In this document: piece after piece, positions 11,690 to 50,447 of the stretch
Position numbering within the stretch: the first letter of the stretch is position 1
Layout: every line of letters begins with the position of its first letter
NCBI GenBank assembly: GCA_964392085.1
Contig: CAYMOV010000001.1
Coordinates: forward strand, 3,566 to 67,565
DNA: 64,000 bases
Source of the DNA: an uncultured bacterium
GTDB lineage: Bacteria > Oederibacteriota > Muellerivitia > Muellerivitales > Muellerivitaceae
Direction of reading: 5' to 3'
The notes under the pieces: model-generated
What the model was told of the DNA's origin: nothing
What the model saw: only the letters and a program-made list of their open reading frames with translations
The model's database searches: none
Made by a program: the position numbers and the translations under genes

Positions 11690-12346
11690 ATGAGCTCCGA
11701 ACAGGAAATTTTCGAAAAATACGGTCGGGTTTATAACGCTGGCGACATCATTTTCCGGGAGGGGGATGTCGGCGTCGAGATGTACATCCTCCAAAGCGGC
11801 AAGGTCAAGATCACCAAGGTCGTCAAGGGCGGCGAGGAGAAGACCCTTGTGATCCTTGGTCCCGGTGATTTCTTTGGTGAAATGGCGGTCATTGACAAGG
11901 AACCCCGTTCGGCCAACGCGGTCGCCATGGAGCCTTCACGCCTCATCTCTTTGGATGAGGAAGTCTTTGAGATGCACATGCAGACCAACCCTAAGATCGT
12001 CAAGAAAATCCTCAAGAACCTCACCTCCCGTCTCCGGGACGCGAATCAGCAGATCGCCAACCTCATGATCCGGGACGCGAACCGCCTGGTGGCGAATACC
12101 ATCCTCCTGGTGGTCCATAAGCACGGCGATGCCGGCGCGGACGGCATCGTCATGAACATCGAGTTCACTACCCGTGAACTCGCCAAGATGTGCGGGGTCG
12201 ACTTCGACAAAACCACCGAGATCGTCGACAAGATGGCCAAGGCCCGGGTCCTTAAGCACGTCGGGGATAGTCTGGTGGTCACCAGCCTGGAAAGCCTTGA
12301 AAAATGGATCAAGTACCTCGAAATGAAGGAACAATTCGGCGAATAA
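11690..12346 (+). CDS. Crp/Fnr-family transcriptional regulator (cNMP-binding domain plus C-terminal HTH), 218 aa.
   Basis: GDFFGEMAV cNMP-binding motif. C-terminal helix-turn-helix (TTRELAKMCGVDFDKTTEIVDKMAK). Confidence 0.85.
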   Translation: MSSEQEIFEKYGRVYNAGDIIFREGDVGVEMYILQSGKVKITKVVKGGEEKTLVILGPGDFFGEMAVIDKEPRSANAVAMEPSRLISLDEEVFEMHMQTNPKIVKKILKNLTSRLRDANQQIANLMIRDANRLVANTILLVVHKHGDAGADGIVMNIEFTTRELAKMCGVDFDKTTEIVDKMAKARVLKHVGDSLVVTSLESLEKWIKYLEMKEQFGE

Positions 12347-12356
12347 GATCGGATCT

Positions 12357-12388
12357 GACCGCCCCCCGACCGGGGGGCGGTTTTTTTA
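12357..12388 (+). terminator. Rho-independent terminator after the Crp/Fnr gene.
   Basis: CCGCCCCCCG / CGGGGGGCGG stem followed by T7. Confidence 0.8.
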
Positions 12389-12474
12389 TTGGACCCCTTG
12401 CGCTTGTGAACTCCGGAATCCTTCGGTTAGAATGCGCCCGTTTCCAACCAACCTCAAGTGAACTCGACCCGACC

Positions 12475-13449
12475 GTGCAACTGACCCGAATCACCGGACC
12501 CATCCAAGATGACCTCGATCGAGTCGAGCGGACGATCGCGTCCTCACTCCGGACGGATAACCTCTTCATCCGCCAAATGGTTGAATACCTCGCCCATGGA
12601 AGCGGCAAACGCCTGCGGCCCGCTATGGCGATCCTATCCGCCAAAGCCTTTGGTGAAGTCGGCGAACCGGTCATCGCCTTAGCCGCTTCCATTGAGATGC
12701 TCCATGTCGCGACCCTCATCCATGATGACATCATCGATAACTCCCAGGTCCGCCGGAAACAAAAGACCCTCAATTTCAAGTGGGGAAACGAAATCTCGGT
12801 CTTGATGGGGGACTACGTTTTCGCATCCTCGTTTTATTTAATGGCCCAGAACCTTCCCAAGGACGTATTGGAGACCCTCTCCGACACCACGAACATCATT
12901 TGCCGGGGGGAAATCTCTGAAACCTTCCATCGTTTCAACCCGGATTTGACCGAGGACCAGTATTTCGAGGTGGTGCGGGAAAAGACCGCGAGCCTGATCG
13001 CCGCTGCCTGCCAAACCGGAGCCATGTTGGCGGGGGCCGACGGAAAGATCGTGGACGCTTTGTACCGGTTCGGCCTCGGCATCGGGATGGCTTTCCAGGT
13101 GATCGACGACGCGCTTGATTACGAGGGCCAAAAGGACTTGGTCGGGAAGCCCGTTTTGACCGATTTTAAGGAGGGCAAGTTGACCCTTCCGGTGCTCCAC
13201 CTGATGAAGTCCTGCAAAACGGCGGAACAAAAGAAAATCCGCGCCTGGATCCTCAAGAAGGTGAAGTCCGCGGCGGACCTGAAGGGTCTCACGGGACTTT
13301 TGGCGAAATATGGCTCCGTGGAATATTCCAGGAGAAGGGCCGAAGGTTTCGCCACGGAAGCCACCCAAGCCTTAGCGGTGCTCAATGGGAATCCCCTGAA
13401 AAAAGACCTTCTTCAATTCGCCGAATTCTTCGTTCGTCGTGACTACTGA
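12475..13449 (+). CDS. Polyprenyl diphosphate synthase (IspB/HepT-like trans-isoprenyl diphosphate synthase).
   Basis: Two DDxxD motifs (LIHDDIIDNS, QVIDDALDY) and a GKRLRP motif. The track start at 12304 overlaps crp and its terminator. The GTG at 12475 gives a 324-aa product typical of the family, but the start is uncertain and the GTG at 12406 is also possible. Confidence 0.75.
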   Translation: MQLTRITGPIQDDLDRVERTIASSLRTDNLFIRQMVEYLAHGSGKRLRPAMAILSAKAFGEVGEPVIALAASIEMLHVATLIHDDIIDNSQVRRKQKTLNFKWGNEISVLMGDYVFASSFYLMAQNLPKDVLETLSDTTNIICRGEISETFHRFNPDLTEDQYFEVVREKTASLIAAACQTGAMLAGADGKIVDALYRFGLGIGMAFQVIDDALDYEGQKDLVGKPVLTDFKEGKLTLPVLHLMKSCKTAEQKKIRAWILKKVKSAADLKGLTGLLAKYGSVEYSRRRAEGFATEATQALAVLNGNPLKKDLLQFAEFFVRRDY

Positions 13450-29869: not shown

Positions 29870-29943
29870 AAACACGGATGGCGGTTGGCGTATAGCGGTT
29901 GGCCAAAACAACGAATCAACCTAAAGCATTAATCGGGGACAAA

Positions 29944-31251
29944 ATGGCACGCGGACCGAAACCCTTCTCGCTGAAGCAATCCGAACGGCTTTTCGCCGAG
30001 GCCAAGAAGCACCTGGTGGGTGGGGTCAATAGCCCGGTCCGGGCCTTCCGGGGCGTGGGCGGCAACCCCATCGTCTTCTCGAGGGGGAAGGGGCCCTACC
30101 TGATCGACGTGGACGGAAACCGGTACCTCGACCTCGTCGGGTCCTGGGGTCCGTTGATCCTGGGCCACGTCCAGACCGAGGTGGCGAACAAAGTCCGCCG
30201 GACCCTCCGCAAGGGATTCACCTTCGGGGCACCCAACCCGCTGGAGGTGGATTTGGCCGTGGAGGTGAAAAAGGCTTATCCCACCATGGAGAAGGTCCGA
30301 TTCGTATCCTCCGGGACCGAGGCGACCTTCAGCGCCATCCGCCTGGCCCGCGCCGCCACGAAACGCAAGCGGATCCTGAAGTTCGACGGCTGTTACCACG
30401 GCCACGGCGACAGCCTCTTGGTGGCCGCGGGCAGCGGTCCAGCCACCCTCGGACTGCCGGACTCCCCGGGGGTACCTGAGGAGATCGCCTCCCTGACCCT
30501 CAGCGTTCCTTACAATGATTTGGAAGCCGTCCGTTTGGCCTTCGCTCAATTCAAGGATATCGCGGCGGTCATCGTGGAACCCGTGGCGGGGAACATGGGG
30601 GTCGTCCCGCCGGTTCCGGGGTTCCTGGAAGGCCTCCGGGACATCACGAAGCAGAACGGCGCGCTCCTGATTTTCGACGAGGTCATGTGCGGATTCCGGG
30701 TGGCGATGGGCGGCGCCCAAGAGCTTTATCAGGTCCCGGCCGACCTCACCACGCTGGGCAAGGTGATCGGCGGCGGGTTCCCGGCCGCGGCCTATGGGGG
30801 CCGGTTGGACCTGATGTCGCTGGTTTCCCCCGAGGGACCGGTCTACCAGGCTGGCACCCTATCGGGCAACCCCGTGGCCATGGCGGCTGGTTTGGCGACC
30901 TTGAAGATCCTCCGCCGGACGAACGCCCATCAAGGACTCGAAGAAACAGGCGCTTTCCTGGAGGTGGGGATACGCAGGGCCCTGACCGCCACCCAAACCG
31001 ATGCAGTCCTCCAAAGGGTGGGGAGCATGGCGACGCTTTTCTTCCAAAAGGGGCCCGTCCGGAACTACAAGGACGCCAAGAAGAGCGACCGCGACCGCTT
31101 CTCCCGGTTCTTCTGGGCCATGGCCAAACGGGGCGTGTACCTCCCACCGTCCCAATTTGAGGCCTGGTTCCTGAACACGGCGCTGAAGAAGGAACACCTG
31201 AAGCGGATCCTGAAGGCCTTCACGGAAAGCCTGTTGGAGTCGAAGGCCTAA
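29944..31251 (+). CDS. hemL: Glutamate-1-semialdehyde 2,1-aminomutase.
   Basis: GGVNSPVRAF motif and PLP-aminotransferase class III sequence. The track start is a TTG at 29899; the ATG at 29944 is preferred. Confidence 0.9.
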   Translation: MARGPKPFSLKQSERLFAEAKKHLVGGVNSPVRAFRGVGGNPIVFSRGKGPYLIDVDGNRYLDLVGSWGPLILGHVQTEVANKVRRTLRKGFTFGAPNPLEVDLAVEVKKAYPTMEKVRFVSSGTEATFSAIRLARAATKRKRILKFDGCYHGHGDSLLVAAGSGPATLGLPDSPGVPEEIASLTLSVPYNDLEAVRLAFAQFKDIAAVIVEPVAGNMGVVPPVPGFLEGLRDITKQNGALLIFDEVMCGFRVAMGGAQELYQVPADLTTLGKVIGGGFPAAAYGGRLDLMSLVSPEGPVYQAGTLSGNPVAMAAGLATLKILRRTNAHQGLEETGAFLEVGIRRALTATQTDAVLQRVGSMATLFFQKGPVRNYKDAKKSDRDRFSRFFWAMAKRGVYLPPSQFEAWFLNTALKKEHLKRILKAFTESLLESKA

Positions 31252-31318
31252 GGGTCTGTTATAATCTTAACAGCGTCGTAACCCCACCCTTGGGGCGATT
31301 CGATTTCCAGGATGGTGC

Positions 31319-31987
31319 ATGGGACGACCCCTCTTACCTACGATTTCCGGGACTCTCCTAGCGGGGTTTTTCCTGTTGTCCGTTCCCGGGTGGGGCGCGG
31401 ATTTCATGGAAATCAACGTATTGCCTACCCCAAAATCGACGATCCCCAACGCCTCTACCGTCTCCAAGACCCCGACCCATCCAGCGACTGAAAAGGCGAC
31501 GGTCGCCCCAACCCAGACCGCGGTTCCCGACCCCACCGCCGATCAGGCGACCGAGGAGCCCACGGTTTCATCAGTTCCCAATCTGACGGTGACGCCCACC
31601 CCGACCGGGACCCCCATCGCGTCGGATTTCGCCACACCTGTTACGTCCCCTTCACCGACCCCTGTCTTGGTCCCCACCCCCGATGTCGTGAAGGGACAGC
31701 TGAAGATGAAGGACCTCTACGCGGCCGGGATGAAGGCTTACCGATCCAAGGATTACGAGAAGTCGATCCGTTTCCTGAAGCAATCCTTGGATTACCACGA
31801 CCCCTACACACCCAAATACTATTACGCCGAATCGAACGCCATGCTTGGCGTGATCTACCAATTCTATTTTATGGTGCCGGGCCATACCGCCTTGGCGCGT
31901 GATTATTACCAGGCCGCGTTGAAGATCGACCCGACCACCCAATCGGCGAAGTTGCATTTGAAGGAAGTCCAAGACGGGAGGGATTGA
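31319..31987 (+). CDS. Secreted protein: signal peptide, about 100-aa Thr/Pro-rich linker, about 95-aa C-terminal TPR-like domain (222 aa).
   Basis: Signal peptide MGRPLLPTISGTLLAGFFLLSVPGWGA. Linker rich in T, P, S, A. The C-terminal block (DPYTPKYYYAESNAMLGVIYQ...YYQAALKIDP) is paralogous to the C-terminus of the next gene. Confidence 0.6.
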   Translation: MGRPLLPTISGTLLAGFFLLSVPGWGADFMEINVLPTPKSTIPNASTVSKTPTHPATEKATVAPTQTAVPDPTADQATEEPTVSSVPNLTVTPTPTGTPIASDFATPVTSPSPTPVLVPTPDVVKGQLKMKDLYAAGMKAYRSKDYEKSIRFLKQSLDYHDPYTPKYYYAESNAMLGVIYQFYFMVPGHTALARDYYQAALKIDPTTQSAKLHLKEVQDGRD

Positions 31988-33108
31988 TGAAGAAATCCAT
32001 GCGAGTGTTGCTGGGATGCCTGCTGGTCTTGGGGGCGGTTTCATTCCCTAAGACGGTCTCCGCCCTCCCCAAAAAGCCCATTGCCTTCACCCTCCAAGGC
32101 ATCTACATATCCCCCATGAAGCCTGAGGCGGTGGCCGATGTCCTCAGCGACGGATGGGCGATCTTCGCCATGCCGGAATTTCAGGCGAACCCCTTTCTGG
32201 GTCTCGGAGTTGGTTATGAATATGACCACTTTTACCGGCCGGGCCGGGGCAGTATGAGGGCGGCCGATATGTTCCTGGCGGGTCGCCTCCATATGCCTGG
32301 CCGCTCGGGCGACAACATCCCCTATTTCCTGGCAACTCTCGGCGTGAACGACCTTCCCAAGACGGGCGACCATTGGCGTGGGACCACCCGAGCCTCCATC
32401 GGGTTGGGCACCCGCCTGGGGGTCGTGCCTGGATTTTCCTTCGACTTGGGCGTCCACCAGCATTGGATGCTCCCCAGGCCCTACAATATGCAATACGTTG
32501 AAGTCAGGTGGGGGATTGCGATGGAATTCGGCGAGCCCGAACCCCAGCCGACTAAGAAACCTACCCAAGCCCCGAGTCCTTCCGCCACTACAACCGTAAC
32601 TGTGGGCAGTCCCACGGCGACAACGACCGTTACCGCGACTCCGACGGCCACCACAACCCAGGGCATGCCGCCCGAGGTGCCAACCGCCACGGTGACCCCC
32701 ACCGCGACCTCGAACGAGTTCTCCAAGAACCCTTTGCCGACCGAGGAGACCTTCAAGACCATGCGGGAGTGCTATGAAGTCGGGATCACCGCCTACCGCC
32801 TAAAAGAATTCGCGAAGGCCGCCAAATACTTCAAGAAGTCCCTGACCATCAACGACCCCAGCACCCCTTACTGGTACTACGCCGAGGCGAACGCCATGAT
32901 GGGGGTCGTATACCAACGCTTCGGACGACTGCCTGACCATCTCCAGAAGGCTGAGTATTACTACCGGGCGGCCCTGAAGATCGACCCTGCCACCGAAACG
33001 GCCAAGAAGGGCCTTGTCTCCCTGGGCATCTCAACGGCGCCGGTCCACCATCGGGCGCCGGTCCATCATCGCGTGGCTCCCAAACCCGCCGCGACGCCGA
33101 GCGAATAG
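31984..33108 (+). CDS. Secreted/outer-membrane protein: signal peptide, about 180-aa OmpA/OmpW-like small beta-barrel-type domain, Thr/Pro-rich linker, C-terminal TPR-like domain (374 aa).
   Basis: Signal peptide MMKKSMRVLLGCLLVLGAVSFPKTVSA. The N-terminal domain shows an alternating hydrophobic-strand pattern. Linker TTTVTVGSPTATTTVTATPTATTT. C-terminal DPSTPYWYYAEANAMMGVVYQ...YYYRAALKIDP block shared with the upstream gene. ATGA overlap with the upstream gene. Confidence 0.6.
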   Translation: MMKKSMRVLLGCLLVLGAVSFPKTVSALPKKPIAFTLQGIYISPMKPEAVADVLSDGWAIFAMPEFQANPFLGLGVGYEYDHFYRPGRGSMRAADMFLAGRLHMPGRSGDNIPYFLATLGVNDLPKTGDHWRGTTRASIGLGTRLGVVPGFSFDLGVHQHWMLPRPYNMQYVEVRWGIAMEFGEPEPQPTKKPTQAPSPSATTTVTVGSPTATTTVTATPTATTTQGMPPEVPTATVTPTATSNEFSKNPLPTEETFKTMRECYEVGITAYRLKEFAKAAKYFKKSLTINDPSTPYWYYAEANAMMGVVYQRFGRLPDHLQKAEYYYRAALKIDPATETAKKGLVSLGISTAPVHHRAPVHHRVAPKPAATPSE

Positions 33109-33110
33109 GC

Positions 33111-33335
33111 GTGCCCCAGGACGGCTTTGAGATTGTCTTCGAGGGGTCGTCCTTCGAAGCTTCGGTGGTGAGGGGGAAGCTGGAGTCCGAAGGACTCCAC
33201 CCCCAGCTCTGGGACGACAACATCTCAAACCTCCTTCCCATGACCGCTGTTTCGCCTGGCCATTTCGGCGTGGTGAAGGTGGCGGTGCCATATTCCGAAG
33301 CGGATTCAGCCATTGATAAATTAAGCCGATTATAA
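33111..33335 (+). CDS. DUF2007-like small protein (74 aa; putative signal-transducing protein family, PII-like fold).
   Basis: IVFEGSSFEASVVRGKLESEGL...VKVAVPYSEADSAIDKL pattern typical of DUF2007. Starts 2 nt after the previous stop. Confidence 0.5.
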   Translation: MPQDGFEIVFEGSSFEASVVRGKLESEGLHPQLWDDNISNLLPMTAVSPGHFGVVKVAVPYSEADSAIDKLSRL

Positions 33336-33354
33336 AGAGAGCGCGGGGTTTTCC

Positions 33355-33717
33355 TTGGATGCATCCAGTCCAAACGAATTGGATTTCCAGAGTTATATAA
33401 CCGTTTATAAGGGCGTCGAATTCGAGGCTGATTTAATACTGGGCCGAATAAACGCCGAGGGGCTACGTTGCGTTAAGTTTGAGGAACCCGGACTAATTAA
33501 TCCGGGCAGAAGAACACTCAATACATTTTGTGTTTCCGTTCATCCAGACGATTGTCGTCAAGCGGAAGAGTTATTGGGTGATTCACTTGTACAACCGTTA
33601 ACTCATCTATCCGACGGGATGGATGGTGAAAGTCGCAATTCCCCGATGTTCATTGTCGTTTATCTGGCGGGATTGTGCTTGGCGTTTTTATTATATTTTC
33701 TGGTGTTCAGCCGTTAG
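33355..33717 (+). CDS. DUF2007-like small protein with a C-terminal TM helix (120 aa), in a lower-GC segment.
   Basis: ITVYKGVEFEADLILGRINAEGL pattern paralogous to 33111..33335. C-terminal hydrophobic helix MFIVVYLAGLCLAFLLYFLVF. Visibly AT-richer than the flanks. Confidence 0.5.
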   Translation: MDASSPNELDFQSYITVYKGVEFEADLILGRINAEGLRCVKFEEPGLINPGRRTLNTFCVSVHPDDCRQAEELLGDSLVQPLTHLSDGMDGESRNSPMFIVVYLAGLCLAFLLYFLVFSR

Positions 33718-33718
33718 G

Positions 33719-34504
33719 TCAATTAACTGTTTGCCGGATCCGTTCAATCTTTGTGGCCTTGCCGGTCAAGGGTTCCACCGACACCACCACCCCCTGGAAC
33801 CAGTAGGGAAGGTCCTCGGCCCCTTCGAAACGCGCCGGGGCGCTGGTGAGGAACCGTTTGATGGCGATCTCCTTCTTGACCCCGATGACCGAGGCGATGC
33901 AGCCCGTCATGCCGATGTCGGTCAAGTAGGCCGTGCCGCCCGGTAGGATCTCCTCGTCGGCGGTCATGACGTGGGTATGGGTGCCGGTCACGGAAGAAAC
34001 GCGCCCGTCCAGGTACCAGCCCATGGCCCGCTTCTCGCTGGTGGCCTCCGCGTGCATATCCACCAGGATGACCTTGGCCCGCCCCCCGATCTCCGCCAGG
34101 GCCCTTTCCCCTGCCTTAAAAGGGCAATCCAGGGGGAAGTTCATCCCCACCCGTCCCATAAGGTTCATGACGGCCACCGGGGTTCCCTTGCAGTCGAAAA
34201 CCCCCACGCCGGAACCTGGGTTCTCGGAAGGGTAGTTGTGGGGCCTGAGCAGGCGGGAGTCCTTGCCGATGATCTCGTGGACTTCCTTCTTGGCCCAAAT
34301 GTGGTTTCCTGTGGTGACGACGTCCACCCCCTGGTCGATCAGGAAGCGGAACTGGTCGGGTTGGATCCCCACGACTCCTGCCATGTTCTCGCCGTTGGCC
34401 ACGATGAAATCGATGGAATAGTCCGTCCTGATCTTCTTGAGGACTTGATGGACGGCGTGGCGTCCGGGCTTGCCGCAGATGTCGCCGATCAGGAGGATGT
34501 TCAT
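33719..34504 (-). CDS. ymdB: YmdB-family metallophosphoesterase (2',3'-cyclic-nucleotide phosphodiesterase-like).
   Basis: MNILLIGDICGKPGR..., GNHIWAKKE and other calcineurin-like metal-ligand motifs. Confidence 0.8.
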   Translation of the reverse strand: MNILLIGDICGKPGRHAVHQVLKKIRTDYSIDFIVANGENMAGVVGIQPDQFRFLIDQGVDVVTTGNHIWAKKEVHEIIGKDSRLLRPHNYPSENPGSGVGVFDCKGTPVAVMNLMGRVGMNFPLDCPFKAGERALAEIGGRAKVILVDMHAEATSEKRAMGWYLDGRVSSVTGTHTHVMTADEEILPGGTAYLTDIGMTGCIASVIGVKKEIAIKRFLTSAPARFEGAEDLPYWFQGVVVSVEPLTGKATKIERIRQTVN

Positions 34505-39982: not shown

Positions 39983-40297
39983 ATGGATCCCAGCAAACTG
40001 CCCTTGATCCTCGAACTCCTCCAGGACGATCCCGATGACCCCGTCCTCTTATTGAATGCCGGTAAGATCCTCCTCCAAACCCAACAGGCCGAGGAGGCCT
40101 TGATCCACCTCCGGAGGCTCGCCGAGAAGCACCCCACGAACATGGCGGTCTACCGCGAATTGGGCGCCGCCTTCCTCGCGAGGGGGGAGACCCGATCGGC
40201 GAGGCAGGCTTTTGAGATGGGACGTCAGGTCTCGCTGGCCGCCCGGGACCCCTCGGCCGCCTCGGAATATGAATCCCTGATCGGCCAATGCGTCTGA
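39983..40297 (+). CDS. Small TPR-like protein (104 aa).
   Basis: Helical repeats (ALIHLRRLAEKHP, AVYRELGAAFLARGE, ARQAFEMGRQ). GGAG RBS. Overlaps the start of the downstream GT-C gene by 10 nt. Confidence 0.45.
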   Translation: MDPSKLPLILELLQDDPDDPVLLLNAGKILLQTQQAEEALIHLRRLAEKHPTNMAVYRELGAAFLARGETRSARQAFEMGRQVSLAARDPSAASEYESLIGQCV

Positions 40298-42399
40298 CCC
40301 CGGGCAGGTCCATGGGCCTCGCGTTCGCAGGTGTCCTTTTGGGCCAAGCGGTCCTTATGGGCTCATCGACCGTTTGGACCCTGTTCCCCGGCATATTTTT
40401 ATTTGCCGTCTCGGCTTATCTCCTTCACGGCCAAAGCACGGCCCCGGTACCGGCCCCACCCCGCTCGGTGGAGTTCATCGCATTCATCCTCCTGCTCATC
40501 GTTTCCCTGGCCGTCCACCTCAGCGCCCTCCAGCAACAACTCCCGCCTGGGCTCTTCCGAGACTTCGGGTTGACCGGCCTTTTAGCCCTGCGGGTCCTCC
40601 GGGAAGGATGGAACCCTTATGGGGTTTTCAATCCGACCTTGGTGGACTATCCCATCCTTTTCAGCCTCTTGGCCGGTTGGTTCAAATTCTTCCGCGCCGA
40701 TGTTTTTAATCTCCTGCTTTTCTTCCTACTTGCCGATTGGATTGGCTTGGCCGCCTTCTTCTACGTCTTCCGTCGCCTGGCGGGCCCCACCCAAGGATTG
40801 GCTGCGATGCTTCTCTTCGCCTTCATGCGGTGGCACCTCATTTTGGGTTCCACGGGGCACCCCCACCCCGTGGCCCTTTCCCTGGTCGGAATTGGTTTGG
40901 CTTTTGTCTTGGCGGCTGAGGGGAAGCGTTGGCCCCTCGCCCTGTTGGGAGGGATATCCCTCGGTATGGCTCCCTGGATCTACCAAGGCGCGAAGGCCGT
41001 TCCGATCGGGCTCGCCTTGTGGTTGGGTTGGGAAACTTACCGGGACAGGGGATTCCTGAAGCGGAACCAAAAGAGGTTCTTGGCGGCCGGGATCGGGTTT
41101 CTCCTGGTGGCCGGGCCCATGACTATCCGGTGGGTCGGGGAAGGGATCGTCGTGAACCGGGAAGGCCAAGTGGCCCTGGATTGGACACATCAGACTGCGG
41201 GCTCGCTGTTGGCCCACGCCGGATCCTATCTTTTGATGTTCAACCGCCTGGGCGACGCCAATCCCATGGAAAGCATACCGGGAAAGCCCCTGATGGACGC
41301 CATCGGGGGAGCCGCCTTCGCCCTGGGGCTGGGCCTATGGCTTTTTGCGCCGAAAAGACGGATCGCCGCCTGCGGCTTAATCGGCCTATCGGTGGGGTGC
41401 CTTCCCGGATTGCTGTCGAAGGACGCGGCCCATGCTGGTCGGACCTTTGAGATGGCCCCCTGGGTCGCCTTGGCGGCATCCGAGGGTTGGATGGCCTTTT
41501 GGCGGTGGGCGCGGGAGCGCAAGGTTCGCCTGCGCCAACTGGCGCAGGGAGGGCTAGTCCTATTATTGCTTGTCAGTGCCTGGATGAATTGGCGCCAATG
41601 GCGATATGAATGGGCGGGTCAGCCAGGCCTATGGGACCTATTTGACGGCGCCGAGACGAAGTTGGGCAACGACGTCGCCCAATGTCCAGTCGGCATGGAG
41701 TTTCGGGTGTCCAACCAATTCCTCCATCACTTCACCTTCAAGTATCTCGCCTATGACCTCCTCAAGGACTGCAAGCCCCTCGATCCATCGGATTTCCTTA
41801 ACCCGCCTGCTCCTGGTGCCCAAAGGGTCCGGTTCGTTTTGGATCCTGCCCAATCGGCCTATCGGGGCGTTTTATTGACGGAATTTCCGAAGGCGCTGGT
41901 CGAAAGCGTCAACAACCCCAAAGGCGAACCGATCGCGTATCAGATCGACGTGCCAAGCGGCGACTTCAAGCCTTTGAAAAAGGACTACTTCGGCCTTCGG
42001 GCCAGGTTCTTCCTCCGGACGCCCCAAGGGGACAGGTTGTTCTTGGACCGGGTGGACCGGGTGGTCAATTACACCAACGGGAACGACTTCCCGAGGCCGC
42101 CGGGGGAAGAAGGCGTTGTGGTGGTCCAATGGACCGGTTGGATCGACGCCCCAAAGACGGGGGACTACAGCCTGGGGGTGGACGCGACCGGGCCCTTCAA
42201 GTTGAAGGTGGACGGCAAAACCCAGGCAACTCCCGAAGGATTGGGGTTGATCCCTCTGCACATAATGAAAGGCAAGTATCTGTTTGAACTGGATTACTTG
42301 CCGAAAAGGGAGTGGACTGAAAAACTTAATCTGACCTTTGGAATTGTTGAACAAACTGGCATTGACGATTTAACGCTGATTGGGTTCGCCACAAAATAG
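40288..42399 (+). CDS. GT-C-fold polytopic membrane glycosyltransferase-like protein with a C-terminal PA14 domain (703 aa).
   Basis: About 12 N-terminal TM helices with an Arg/Asp first loop, resembling ArnT/PMT-type GT-C enzymes. The C-terminal roughly 150 aa carries a PA14-like block (VVVVQWTGWIDAPKTGDYSLGVDATGPFKLKVDG). The last roughly 50 codons are AT-rich. Confidence 0.55.
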   Translation: MRLTPGRSMGLAFAGVLLGQAVLMGSSTVWTLFPGIFLFAVSAYLLHGQSTAPVPAPPRSVEFIAFILLLIVSLAVHLSALQQQLPPGLFRDFGLTGLLALRVLREGWNPYGVFNPTLVDYPILFSLLAGWFKFFRADVFNLLLFFLLADWIGLAAFFYVFRRLAGPTQGLAAMLLFAFMRWHLILGSTGHPHPVALSLVGIGLAFVLAAEGKRWPLALLGGISLGMAPWIYQGAKAVPIGLALWLGWETYRDRGFLKRNQKRFLAAGIGFLLVAGPMTIRWVGEGIVVNREGQVALDWTHQTAGSLLAHAGSYLLMFNRLGDANPMESIPGKPLMDAIGGAAFALGLGLWLFAPKRRIAACGLIGLSVGCLPGLLSKDAAHAGRTFEMAPWVALAASEGWMAFWRWARERKVRLRQLAQGGLVLLLLVSAWMNWRQWRYEWAGQPGLWDLFDGAETKLGNDVAQCPVGMEFRVSNQFLHHFTFKYLAYDLLKDCKPLDPSDFLNPPAPGAQRVRFVLDPAQSAYRGVLLTEFPKALVESVNNPKGEPIAYQIDVPSGDFKPLKKDYFGLRARFFLRTPQGDRLFLDRVDRVVNYTNGNDFPRPPGEEGVVVVQWTGWIDAPKTGDYSLGVDATGPFKLKVDGKTQATPEGLGLIPLHIMKGKYLFELDYLPKREWTEKLNLTFGIVEQTGIDDLTLIGFATK

Positions 42400-42421: not shown

Positions 42422-42784
42422 ATGAAACCACCAATCATCCTTGATGAAAATGGGAATTTAATGTTTTTTAAATCCTCAGATTCGGTTGAAGCCTACATCG
42501 AATTAATTGACGTAAAGAATAACGAGTATCAAGTCTACGATTCGGAGGGCAAAACATTGGACTTATTTGTTGAGCTCTATAAAAGGAAATGGTTGGGAAT
42601 TACGCTCATGTCGTTTGAAATCGTTAAAATCAGGATGTCGACTTTAAATAACAACAGTCAAGAACAACTAAAACCAAAGATGCTGAAGCTTTTAAAAGAC
42701 GGCAGCCGGGATGCCGAAAAACTTGATGCTCTATCTTTTAAGGAATTGGTTGATCGGTGCTTTGAAAATTACCCAGAAAAGTGA
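42422..42784 (+). CDS. Orphan hypothetical protein (about 120 aa) in a strongly AT-rich island.
   Basis: Open frame with the ATG at 42422 (track ORF from 42380). Composition roughly 35-40% GC by eye against more than 60% for the flanks. No recognisable family. Confidence 0.5.
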   Translation: MKPPIILDENGNLMFFKSSDSVEAYIELIDVKNNEYQVYDSEGKTLDLFVELYKRKWLGITLMSFEIVKIRMSTLNNNSQEQLKPKMLKLLKDGSRDAEKLDALSFKELVDRCFENYPEK

Positions 42785-48176: not shown

Positions 48177-48242
48177 GGGTTGTGCCGGCTCCGCCAAGTG
48201 GGGACTAATTTTGATAAAATCCACGGGTTTGTGAAACAAAGG

Positions 48243-50447
48243 ATGGACCGAGAAATGGAAGAAAAAGCCCTCAAACCCATCAGGGTTGTATTGGGATACG
48301 TCCAATATATTCTTCTGGCCGCCGGGGCCTGGTACGGCCTCCACGGCCAATGGTCCACGATGATCATCACCTTGGGCCTCAGCGCCCTGTGCCATCAGGT
48401 CCTGACCGCGCCCCCCGGACACCCTGACCGGCCAACGGAGCCCCTTCCGGCCTCCAGCCCGGTCCAGTGGGGATGGATCGCCGTGGCGCTCGTCGCCGTT
48501 TACTACGCGGCACCCCTCCTGCAGCAACCCGATTACAACTGGTTGATGGGGCTCCCCCTGTGGCTCTTGTCCGGCTGGGCCCTGTATCGAGCCTTTCCGG
48601 AGGGCCTTCCGGTCATGGATTCCCAGGACATCCCGGTCCGGCCCGTCCGGGGCCAGATGTCCGGGATCATCCTCGGTGTCCTCGTCCTCCTGACCTTCGC
48701 GGCCGTCAAAGTGGTTTTTTTCTTCAAGGGCACGAATGTCCCATTTCCCCTGGAGGCGGTGAAACCCGGGGTCTCGCTCATCTTTGGAACCGCGCTCGCG
48801 ATAATGCTTTTGAGGTGGAAACGCCCGGAGGGCAAGCCGGCCCAGGCCCTTCCCCGTGAAGCCCTTTGGGTCGCCCTTCTGATCTTGGTCGCGGCGCTCC
48901 TTCGCTACCCTTTCATCCACCACCTCTTCGCGGGATTCCAGGGCGACGAAGCCAACGACGCCTTTGACGGCGTCAATGCCATGACGATGTCGAACGGCGT
49001 GGATTCCCCCTTTAAGACATCCTGGGGCGGTTCCCCCTCCATGCCGTATTTTTTCGCCGCGGAGTTCCTCAAGGTCTTCGGGATCAACCTCATCGGTTAC
49101 CGCCTGTACACCCTGACGGCTTGTTTCATCTCGGTTTGGGTTTTCTTCAAGTGGGTCCGGTTCTATTTCAGCGCCAGGGCCTCCCTGGTGGCCTCCTTCC
49201 TGCTGGCCATCTCCTGGTGGCACCTATACAACTCCTTCGCGGTCTTCAACAACAACATCACCTTCCTGATGGAAGTGACGTCGTTCTATTTCCTGGAAAA
49301 GGCCCTCCGAAGCGGGCGCAAGGTCGATTTCTGGTGGACCGGGGTCTTTTTCGCGACCTCCGTTCAAACCTACATCTCCGGCCGTTTGGTCTCGGTCATG
49401 GGGTTCACGGCGGTCCTGGCCTGCGTCCTCATCGCCGGGCGCTGGACCTTCGTGAAGACCTATTGGAAGAACCTCCTTCTGGCCGCCCTGTCTTACCTGG
49501 TCTTCATTTCGCCCTTCCTCTGGTACATCCTCCATTTCCCCCGGGAATTCCTTGGTCGGGCCAAGTACCTGAACATTTTCACCGAAGTCCAACGTACCGG
49601 TGATCATTGGTTGCCCTTCAAGACCGGGGCCTTCACATTGCTGTCCCCGTTTTGGACGACTCCCAGCCCCGACCGGCGGTTCATGATCCCGGGGGATTCC
49701 ATGGTGGACGGCTTTTCGGCCTTCCTCTTCCTGACGGGTTTGGTCCTGGCGTTTTTCACCCTTCGCCGTCGGGTCAGTTGGCTGGGTTTTTGCGGGTTAT
49801 TCTTCGGCATGTTGACCAACGCCCTCGCGATCCAGGGTATGAATCCGGATACCGCCTACATCAACGCCATGCGCCTGTTCCTGGCGCTGCCCTTCATCCT
49901 TTTCCTCGCGGCTCGGGGAGCCGAATGGTACTTAGGGATGTTGGATTCCTACGGAAAAGCCGGCAAACTTTTGGTCCGCGTCTTCCTCATCGTGGGTTTT
50001 TCCATAGCGGGATATTACAACATCCACCTTTATTACTTTAGGCTCGAGGATCGGCCCTCGGATTGGTGCGCCGTGGGATACCACGAAGTGGAGTTGGGGA
50101 AGATCTACCAGAGGGACCTTCCTACCGCACATTTGATGATCGATTGCGACGCTTATAACGGTGTCGTCGATTTCTTCACGGGGCTTCGTCAGAAAAATTT
50201 CGACGTCATCACCGGAAACAAGGTGGACTTCCCGATCCTGTACCCGGTGACCCGCGACGTGGAGATCTTCATGCAGCCGAACAAGCTCAAGAACGTCCAG
50301 GACGACTGCCTCAAATGGTACCCCAAGGCGGTCTGGACGGATTACAAGAATCCCTGGGGGGAATTGTACGCCCGCAGTGTCCGGATCAGTCGAGAGGACA
50401 TCCAGGCCCTTCAAAACGGAAAGACAGTCGGGGATCCCCTCCCCTGA
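48243..50447 (+). CDS. GT-C-fold membrane glycosyltransferase (ArnT/PMT GT39/GT83-like), about 735 aa.
   Basis: Multiple TM helices. First-loop GDEANDAFDG acidic motif typical of PMT/ArnT-type GT-C enzymes. Large C-terminal soluble domain. Start ambiguous (TTG 48180, ATG 48243 or ATG 48255). Confidence 0.6.
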   Translation: MDREMEEKALKPIRVVLGYVQYILLAAGAWYGLHGQWSTMIITLGLSALCHQVLTAPPGHPDRPTEPLPASSPVQWGWIAVALVAVYYAAPLLQQPDYNWLMGLPLWLLSGWALYRAFPEGLPVMDSQDIPVRPVRGQMSGIILGVLVLLTFAAVKVVFFFKGTNVPFPLEAVKPGVSLIFGTALAIMLLRWKRPEGKPAQALPREALWVALLILVAALLRYPFIHHLFAGFQGDEANDAFDGVNAMTMSNGVDSPFKTSWGGSPSMPYFFAAEFLKVFGINLIGYRLYTLTACFISVWVFFKWVRFYFSARASLVASFLLAISWWHLYNSFAVFNNNITFLMEVTSFYFLEKALRSGRKVDFWWTGVFFATSVQTYISGRLVSVMGFTAVLACVLIAGRWTFVKTYWKNLLLAALSYLVFISPFLWYILHFPREFLGRAKYLNIFTEVQRTGDHWLPFKTGAFTLLSPFWTTPSPDRRFMIPGDSMVDGFSAFLFLTGLVLAFFTLRRRVSWLGFCGLFFGMLTNALAIQGMNPDTAYINAMRLFLALPFILFLAARGAEWYLGMLDSYGKAGKLLVRVFLIVGFSIAGYYNIHLYYFRLEDRPSDWCAVGYHEVELGKIYQRDLPTAHLMIDCDAYNGVVDFFTGLRQKNFDVITGNKVDFPILYPVTRDVEIFMQPNKLKNVQDDCLKWYPKAVWTDYKNPWGELYARSVRISREDIQALQNGKTVGDPLP

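Follow-up and report, generated by a model that had tools for sequence, protein, structure and literature searches.

Two adjacent genes, g1 and g2, carried by a 64,000-nt stretch of DNA (the window in the rest of the text) from an uncultured bacterium of the family Muellerivitaceae (phylum Oederibacteriota; assembly GCA_964392085.1, contig CAYMOV010000001.1, positions 3,566 to 67,565 of the forward strand) form a real, cleanly defined and undescribed pair. The pair varies the modular design of OmpA-type outer-membrane proteins and belongs to a narrow lineage without cultured members. The original prediction, made from the sequence of the window, had grouped them with two small downstream genes, g3 and g4, into an uncharacterized four-gene envelope cassette. 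All four open reading frames (ORFs) lie where it had placed them and the system is, as it had stated, undescribed; however, the unit conserved in other loci is the g1+g2 pair. Structure prediction and sequence analysis revealed the domain architecture of the two proteins, the paralogy of their C-terminal tetratricopeptide repeat (TPR) domains, the conservation of the pair and the confinement of g3 to one clade. This architecture is well supported, and from it we infer a function: the balance tips slightly toward a lineage-specific envelope pair built on the OmpA plan, in which g2 would be an outer-membrane-anchored peptide-binding adaptor and g1 its soluble partner.

The translation of g2 most likely begins at the ATG at position 31987, since a GGGAGG motif lies 5 nt upstream, the start overlaps the stop codon of g1 as TGATG, and the source gene calls on near-identical public contigs give a product of 373 amino acids. 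The ATGA overlap proposed for the g1-g2 junction, with a start at 31984, is therefore replaced by this TGATG overlap; searching for the exact g2 sequence as read from the TTG gave no match, as the public gene calls begin one codon later, at the ATG. The N-terminus, which reads MKKSMRVLLGCLLVLGAVSFPKTVSA followed by L, is a predicted signal peptide of residues 1-27 (374-amino-acid numbering) cleaved between VSA and L. Judging from the sequence, g2 has no usable lipobox: its Cys, in LLGC at residues 8-11 (373-amino-acid numbering), is preceded by just 3 hydrophobic residues and is absent in the homologues P0003-P0007. In the AlphaFold2 (AF2) model, the signal-peptide helix is followed by a β-barrel, a disordered stretch and a set of helices. 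The barrel comprises eight strands, and its predicted local distance difference test (pLDDT) score is mostly between 73 and 93 over the block. Foldseek comparison of this domain with the PDB retrieved OmpA (8.6×10−7), the N-terminal barrel of OprF (4rlc, TMt 0.78), NspA, OmpW, OmpX, Ail and PagL. The claim that the N-terminal domain of g2 is barrel-forming and not soluble is thus supported by prediction. Its final strand, RWGIAMEF, conforms to the β-signal for BAM (polar-x-G-x-x-hydrophobic-x-aromatic), Gly177 is invariant across the family, and loops and turns are predicted to be short. A Pfam scan of g2 gave no barrel-family match (PF13505, PF01389 and relatives) at E ≤ 1, and distant relatives found with the barrel profile reached PF13505 (OMP_b-brl) only below threshold (18-23 bits for a cut-off of 28.7). 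On the strength of the model, we assign the g2 barrel to the small eight-stranded outer-membrane barrels by fold, not by sequence family.

The linker that joins the barrel to the C-terminal domain, about 70 amino acids long, has a pLDDT of 32-38; the disordered stretch of the model covers residues 190-252, at a pLDDT of about 33. Linkers of g2 homologues mostly measure 47-120 amino acids and contain 6-25% P and 12-42% T/S. Beyond the linker, AF2 predicted five helices (residues 260-346, pLDDT about 90) that form the TPR domain, and a short Pro/His/Arg tail runs from there to residue 374. Many barrel-TPR homologues (P0007, P0009, P0010, P0012, P0017, P0019, P0021, P0042 and P0153) end in a basic Lys/Pro-rich tail (KPKPKP...).

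g1, preceded by a Shine-Dalgarno motif (AGGA) 6 nt upstream of its start, had been described as a signal peptide, a linker of about 100 amino acids and a TPR-like C-terminal domain, and both AF2 and Pfam TPR_2 agree with this description. The signal peptide covers approximately residues 1-26/27, with cleavage between GWG and A, and the typical n, h and c regions with a small-residue cleavage site are found in most aligned full-length homologues. No Cys occurs in residues 1-40, hence there is no lipobox. The linker (approximately residues 28-125) is acidic, T/P-rich and predicted to be disordered, with a pLDDT below 50 for residues 19-125. Its composition varies among homologues, from T/P-rich in the window to Glu-rich in three other loci (L003, L014 and L016), and its net charge is negative in most of them. 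Because the spacer varies in both sequence and composition, a conserved glycosylation stalk is unlikely, and the probable glycosylation of the tethers put forward in the original prediction is not supported. Taken with the basic tails of g2 homologues, the negative g1 spacers recall the EP/KP rods of TonB and hint at an electrostatic contact between g1 and g2.

The only ordered part of the g1 model is a set of five helices (residues 130-218, pLDDT 80-96). Its best Foldseek match is the designed consensus TPR protein CTPR2 (1na3, TMt 0.84, root-mean-square deviation 2.8), followed by matches that include the peptide-substrate-binding domain of collagen prolyl 4-hydroxylase (P4H, TMt 0.72) and the TPRs of YbgF/CpoB (2xev), Hop and RPAP3. 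The likeness to the P4H peptide-binding domain was kept as a lead only, being no better than the match to the designed consensus TPR. What is specific to the family is an aromatic-rich extension, DPYTPxYYYAExNAMLGVIYQF. At the other end of mature g1, right after the cleavage site, lies a conserved motif of alternating acidic and hydrophobic residues (ADFMEINV, window positions 31400-31420), which takes the forms EEEIHWD, DIDIDT, EIEIDTD, DVEFDMND and DFMEINV among g1 and its homologues. Its likeness to the acidic peptides bound by TPR domains makes it a possible tethered ligand.

As had been proposed, g1 and g2 share their C-terminal domain, with 46% identity over 97 amino acids (BLASTP, E = 8×10−27). 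Pfam TPR_2 (PF07719) matched g1 with 27.9 bits and g2 with 30.2 bits, both above the gathering cut-off of 27, as well as 16 of 16 family domains tested, and the TPR family profile matched consensus TPR proteins among PDB sequences. In a neighbor-joining tree of TPR domains, the g1 domains form one clade separate from the g2 domains, and the identity between g1 and g2 domains of the same locus (38%) equals that of all pairs; the duplication is therefore old, and neither copy has been lost in any of the loci examined.

Both modules also occur in other combinations. A g1/g2-type TPR domain is fused to FadL/PorV/UPF0164-like barrels in proteins of 513-529 amino acids encoded by two related contigs (L047, 571-2112; L049, 2270-3856), whereas P0018 consists of a g2-type small barrel, a linker and a Pfam LysM domain, which by its sequence is an OmpA-like architecture for tethering the outer membrane to the wall, using LysM. 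This reuse of the TPR domain on FadL-like barrels and of the small barrel with LysM supports the view that the barrel anchors periplasmic modules in the outer membrane. The proteins of L047 and L049 share the architecture of the Treponema pallidum FadL-like outer-membrane proteins TP0548, TP0859 and TP0865, which have been modelled only and in which a barrel carries a C-terminal, presumptively periplasmic TPR helical bundle without known function (PMC8407342). g2 differs from the T. pallidum proteins by a barrel of eight strands instead of 14 and by a long disordered linker in place of a short one. P0027 combines a g2-type small barrel and a linker with another C-terminal domain that has no Pfam match and looks LysM-like by eye. 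Also by eye, the ORF upstream of the barrel-TPR gene in L047 (70-570) seems to end in a C-terminal sorting domain of the type IX secretion system kind.

The conserved unit is the g1+g2 pair. Purpose-built hidden Markov models served to annotate 31 metagenome loci retrieved with the g1 profile, along with a further set of loci. A barrel-TPR gene directly follows g1 in all of the metagenome loci that continue past g1 (25/25), as it does in eight further loci (L001-L004, L011, L013, L014 and L016). The two genes overlap by up to 4 nt or are separated by up to 54 nt. The family is rare: g1 has 40 homologues among 5.8 billion protein clusters, in which a word-indexed search retrieved 7 homologues of g2, while the g2 barrel profile gave 84 matches among 1.84 billion representatives; barrel and TPR are both present in 33 of the 153 proteins retrieved. 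A scan of representative genome contigs returned one genome (CAZGWJ01) and four unrelated TPR matches, a count that underestimates the family because the pattern used, [VT][EPK][YF]WYYAE, fits only a close subclade. The pair is restricted to one narrow lineage.

On the 3′ side, the pair is followed in all loci by a convergent ymdB gene, a 5-FTHF cyclo-ligase gene and mgsA. On the 5′ side, most loci carry hemB-hemL, the end of a hemAXCDBL-like operon, and a clade made of L001-L004 and L024 has a polyprenyl synthase gene in place of hem. In L001-L004 the pair comes directly after genes for UvrA, a FadL-like outer-membrane protein, a cNMP-binding protein and the polyprenyl synthase, while in the window the polyprenyl synthase gene (12304-13449) and its three partner genes lie about 18 kb upstream, with nuo and hemAXCDBL blocks intervening before g1. 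The gene orders point to a rearrangement breakpoint just upstream of g1. Since hem is replaced by polyprenyl synthase in this clade, it is the ymdB side, and not hem, to which the pair remains linked.

The two small genes behave differently from the pair. In the window, g3 starts 2 nt after the stop codon of g2; there and in L001-L005, the two genes lie end to end or overlap at this stop codon. Besides these loci, g3 is present in L014/L015, as an uncalled ORF in L014 (E = 8×10−8), and all loci that carry it, with the window, form a single clade of the g2 neighbor-joining tree. At least ten other loci lack g3 and pass straight from g2 to ymdB; in L012, a hairpin followed by a T-run comes directly after g2. 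g3 is thus a clade-specific addition at the 3′ end of the operon, and the DUF2007-like gene expected beside the pair in other genomes was indeed found, in one clade. As to the family itself, g3 reached only 17.8 bits with PF09413 (DUF2007; threshold 25.7, E = 0.0037) and matched NF040569 with E = 7×10−5, while all five g3 family members tested matched the DUF2007 model at E ≤ 0.1, the best at 3×10−8. Comparison of the g3 profile with PDB sequences gave nothing significant (best E = 1). Like DUF2007/NF040569 proteins, the members of the g3 family are small α/β proteins without a signal peptide, and g3 is for that reason presumably cytoplasmic. A literature search for DUF2007 found six papers with the name, none of which has it in its title or abstract; since the family has no established function, membership of g3 in it would explain nothing mechanistic.

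Of the two DUF2007-like proteins that had been proposed, g3 is probably one, judging by its family, while itself staying below threshold, whereas the likeness of g4 is weak and the gene itself doubtful. A BLAST match of 22 amino acids links g4 to g3, and hhalign aligned it with the g3 family over 62 columns (probability 63%, E = 7×10−5), so that g4 reaches DUF2007 only via the g3 profile; it has no Pfam match and an E value of 0.22 with NF040569. No homologue of g4 was found among 5.8 billion proteins, and the gene calls of four near-identical public contigs (L018-L021) do not include it. Its GC content is 0.446 and its third-codon-position GC content (GC3) 0.43, compared to a GC3 of 0.68-0.84 in neighboring genes; it needs a TTG start and has a poor Shine-Dalgarno sequence. 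It is nevertheless the only open frame among the six in its stretch, and a frame of 126 codons was reached in 2.4% of dinucleotide shuffles. The C-terminal segment (approximately residues 99-117) is strongly hydrophobic, with a Kyte-Doolittle maximum of 2.7 at residue 99. The odds that g4 is a real gene are roughly even and, if real, it is recent. Found only in this genome, it stands outside any conserved system. Neither g3 nor g4 is part of the conserved machine: g1+g2 occurs in 25/25 loci, g3 in one clade and g4 nowhere else, and the four-gene cassette is not supported.

Under the explanation that we favor, the OmpA-plan envelope pair, g2 would be exported through its Sec signal peptide and anchored in the outer membrane by its eight-stranded barrel with its β-signal, and its TPR domain would occupy, beyond the T/P-rich disordered spacer, the slot of the peptidoglycan-binding domain of OmpA. 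g1 would contribute the same TPR module without a membrane anchor; its signal peptide would be cleaved off, and an acidic, disordered spacer of about 100 residues would precede the module. Both TPR domains would reside in the periplasm, which the spacers could be long enough to span, and their grooves might each hold an extended peptide of a partner protein. The two proteins would jointly form an adaptor or scaffold anchored in the outer membrane: they would share a common periplasmic or inner-membrane partner, or g2 would capture g1, for which the acidic/hydrophobic N-terminal peptide of mature g1 is a candidate ligand. In barrels of eight strands, both termini face the periplasm and no pore is left for a passenger. 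Because the modelled g2 barrel is of this even-stranded kind, the g2 TPR domain is most likely periplasmic and not on the surface. The display at the surface or in the periplasm that had been envisaged is consequently narrowed to its second half, the periplasm being the more probable place.

The nearest relatives by design are OmpA of E. coli and OprF of P. aeruginosa, whose barrels are the best fold matches of g2 and which, like g2, combine a signal peptide, an N-terminal eight-stranded barrel with a β-signal, a Pro-rich hinge and a globular C-terminal domain. Unlike OmpA, g2 ends in a two-repeat TPR module without a match to PF00691 (OmpA_C), has a hinge of about 70 amino acids instead of about 18 and comes with a soluble paralogue; by sequence it falls outside the OmpA family. 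The favored role also calls to mind LpoB, LpoA, CpoB (YbgF) and NlpI, outer-membrane-anchored or periplasmic adaptors that use disordered linkers, small TPRs or both to contact peptidoglycan synthases, hydrolases or Tol-Pal. However, the anchors of these proteins are lipids, whereas that of g2 is a barrel, and nothing is shared in sequence beyond the generic TPR fold.

Several observations weigh against the OmpA-plan pair. The AF2 monomer model of g1 shows no docking of the N-terminal motif onto its own TPR domain, and pLDDT in the motif is below 50. The alignment underlying the g2 model is shallow (8 sequences), and the periplasmic topology rests on the general rule for even-stranded BAM substrates. 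The fold matches of the TPR domains are generic, with designed consensus TPRs scoring best. Finally, adjacency of g1 and g2 is weak evidence of coupling because all loci come from one strongly syntenic lineage; that two diverged paralogues have both been kept for so long carries more weight. An extended version of the favored explanation, an envelope "extension cord" in which the g2 TPR domain would grip the acidic, EEVD-like N-terminus of g1 while the g1 TPR domain binds a wall or inner-membrane partner, the resulting attachment replacing or supplementing Lpp, Pal, OmpA or OmpM and the clade-specific DUF2007 gene acting as a cytoplasmic regulator of expression, appears to us a long shot.

Other explanations were weighed. 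Were the four genes to act together as an envelope-to-cytoplasm signal-relay or tethering module, cytoplasmic PII-like DUF2007 proteins would work with the TPR pair and g4 would be the membrane link. The close junction of g2 and g3, retained across one clade despite the rearrangement upstream, and the g3-like N-terminal part and hydrophobic C-terminus of g4 would suit such a module; yet g3 is dispensed with in at least ten loci that keep g1 and g2, the hairpin and T-run of L012 come right after g2, g4 has the composition and distribution of an orphan, the module would lack a domain that spans the inner membrane and connects periplasm and cytoplasm, and the literature on DUF2007 offers no help, which leaves this explanation unlikely. 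Signal relay itself is speculation, as the DUF2007 proteins are tied to the pair only by co-transcription in one clade. The location of g1, 17-67 nt after hemL in most loci, at the end of an operon that starts with a Cytochrom_C_asm gene, could instead indicate a periplasmic chaperone for heme or cytochromes, in the manner of CcmI/CycH, a TPR-containing apocytochrome chaperone, or of the TPR protein HemY from the hemCDXY operon of E. coli, and a distant barrel-TPR protein (P0023) showed a faint match to TPR_CcmH_CycH (E = 0.006). We regard this as equally improbable, since the pair follows polyprenyl synthase in L001-L004 and L024, where the hem block lies elsewhere, neither g1 nor g2 matched a HemY or CcmH family, and an outer-membrane anchor would be unexpected for cytochrome c maturation.

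Somewhat less probable still is a surface adhesin whose TPR domains would be displayed on mucin-like, O-glycosylated T/P stalks, akin to the inverse autotransporters with their N-terminal barrel and exported C-terminal passenger. The order of barrel and C-terminal domain in g2 is that of intimin and invasin, the linkers of the window are T/P-rich, and a glycosyltransferase of the PMT_2 family (protein O-mannosyltransferase/ArnT-like) is encoded 15 kb downstream (48180-50447, + strand). However, g1 homologues of several lineages have Glu-rich linkers, a Pro-rich hinge in the periplasm is an ordinary feature of OmpA, OprF and TonB, and neither g1 nor g2 matched any autotransporter or LysM-Ig family. 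Inverse autotransporters proper (intimin/invasin, type Ve) were rejected, as they need a 12-stranded barrel with the linker in its pore and an exported passenger of the Ig-like or lectin type, while g2 has eight strands, short predicted loops, no lumen for a passenger linker and a TPR domain. Another PMT_2-family gene was seen in L002 (15602-17125); genes of this family are the sole hint of linker glycosylation. The smallest probability goes to an accessory factor of outer-membrane biogenesis or export, be it a pilotin or BamD-like TPR factor (PilW/PilF, Tgl) or part of a TPR-barrel polysaccharide exporter (BcsC, PgaA, PelB, AlgK/AlgE). The combination of periplasmic TPRs and an outer-membrane β-barrel is a hallmark of such exporters, and g2 gave weak NCBIfam matches to PilW (3×10−6, 27 bits) and Tgl (0.0019), but these bit scores are far below the curated cut-offs (27 vs 154; 17.6 vs 225) and reflect generic TPR helices only. 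Exopolysaccharide exporters consist of a long TPR array followed by a C-terminal porin of 16-18 strands; compared with BcsC, PgaA and PelB, g2 has the reverse domain order, two TPRs instead of many and a barrel of eight strands instead of a large porin. Moreover, neither protein has a lipobox, no pilus, secretin or polysaccharide synthase gene lies beside the pair in the loci examined, and no polysaccharide synthase gene was seen elsewhere in the window or in these loci.

The envelopes of most diderm phyla known from metagenomes only are uncharacterized, and the attachment of the outer membrane to the underlying layers is an active question, the tether systems recognized so far being four (Lpp, Pal, OmpA and OmpM; 10.1101/2021.05.31.446380). 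In this locus, an OmpA-type barrel anchor has been put to another use, that of suspending a peptide-binding type of TPR module, predicted to be periplasmic, and the TPR domains on FadL/PorV-like barrels in related contigs mirror the unexplained TPR extensions of T. pallidum FadL proteins (PMC8407342). Identification of a partner would give a function to the g1/g2 family and to barrel-TPR fusions as a class. The present value of the locus, with a well-defined architecture, an inferred role and a narrow lineage, lies in annotation, and it should hold little surprise for an envelope specialist.

Coordinates of g1 to g4 and of their predicted domains in the window
Feature	Position	Strand	Description
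g1	31319..31987	+	ORF; exported TPR protein, 222 aa
g1 TPR domain, residues 126-218	31694..31972	+	Two TPR motifs and capping helix
g2	31987..33108	+	Predicted outer-membrane barrel-TPR protein, 373 aa from ATG 31987 (374 aa from TTG 31984)
g2 eight-stranded β-barrel, residues 33-182	32080..32529	+	Predicted by AF2 and Foldseek
g2 linker, T/P/S-rich, disordered, residues ~183-255	32530..32748	+	Predicted from AF2 pLDDT
g2 TPR domain, residues 256-346	32749..33021	+	BLASTP, AF2 and TPR_2
g3	33111..33335	+	74-aa probable DUF2007-family protein
g4	33355..33717	+	Doubtful 120-codon orphan ORF, TTG start

The neighbors of the four ORFs are those that had been named, with hemL upstream of g1 (29899-31251, TIGR00713, E = 3×10−177) and a convergent ymdB gene downstream (33719-34504, PF13277, E = 2×10−103). 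The TATAAT element assigned to the cassette as its own is present upstream of g1 (31260-31265), but a promoter scan found no matching −35 element and no credible sigma-70 promoter upstream of g1. A terminator scan found none after g4. Scanning with PADLOC gave no credible defense-system match, its sole match (13.6 bits, nicking endonuclease model) lying over the low-complexity linker of g1, and no rRNA, tRNA or Rfam match was found in the window. The envelope genes of the window include LptF/G and FadL-like outer-membrane proteins, and by these the host is a diderm with a lipopolysaccharide-transport gene.

A second ORF of about 120 codons (42422-42784, + strand) sits in a sharp low-GC island of the window (34-41% GC compared to about 62% for the window), just 3′ of a PA14-domain gene (40288-42399) and ahead of a convergent ZapA-like gene. 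Together with g4, it raises the possibility that AT-rich orphan ORFs may gather at convergent gene junctions in this genome. Lastly, hemA, which codes for glutamyl-tRNA reductase, is broken up into three ORFs on L018 (14515-15798) and intact on the other near-identical contigs (L019, 10555-11838), the split being probably assembly or frameshift noise.

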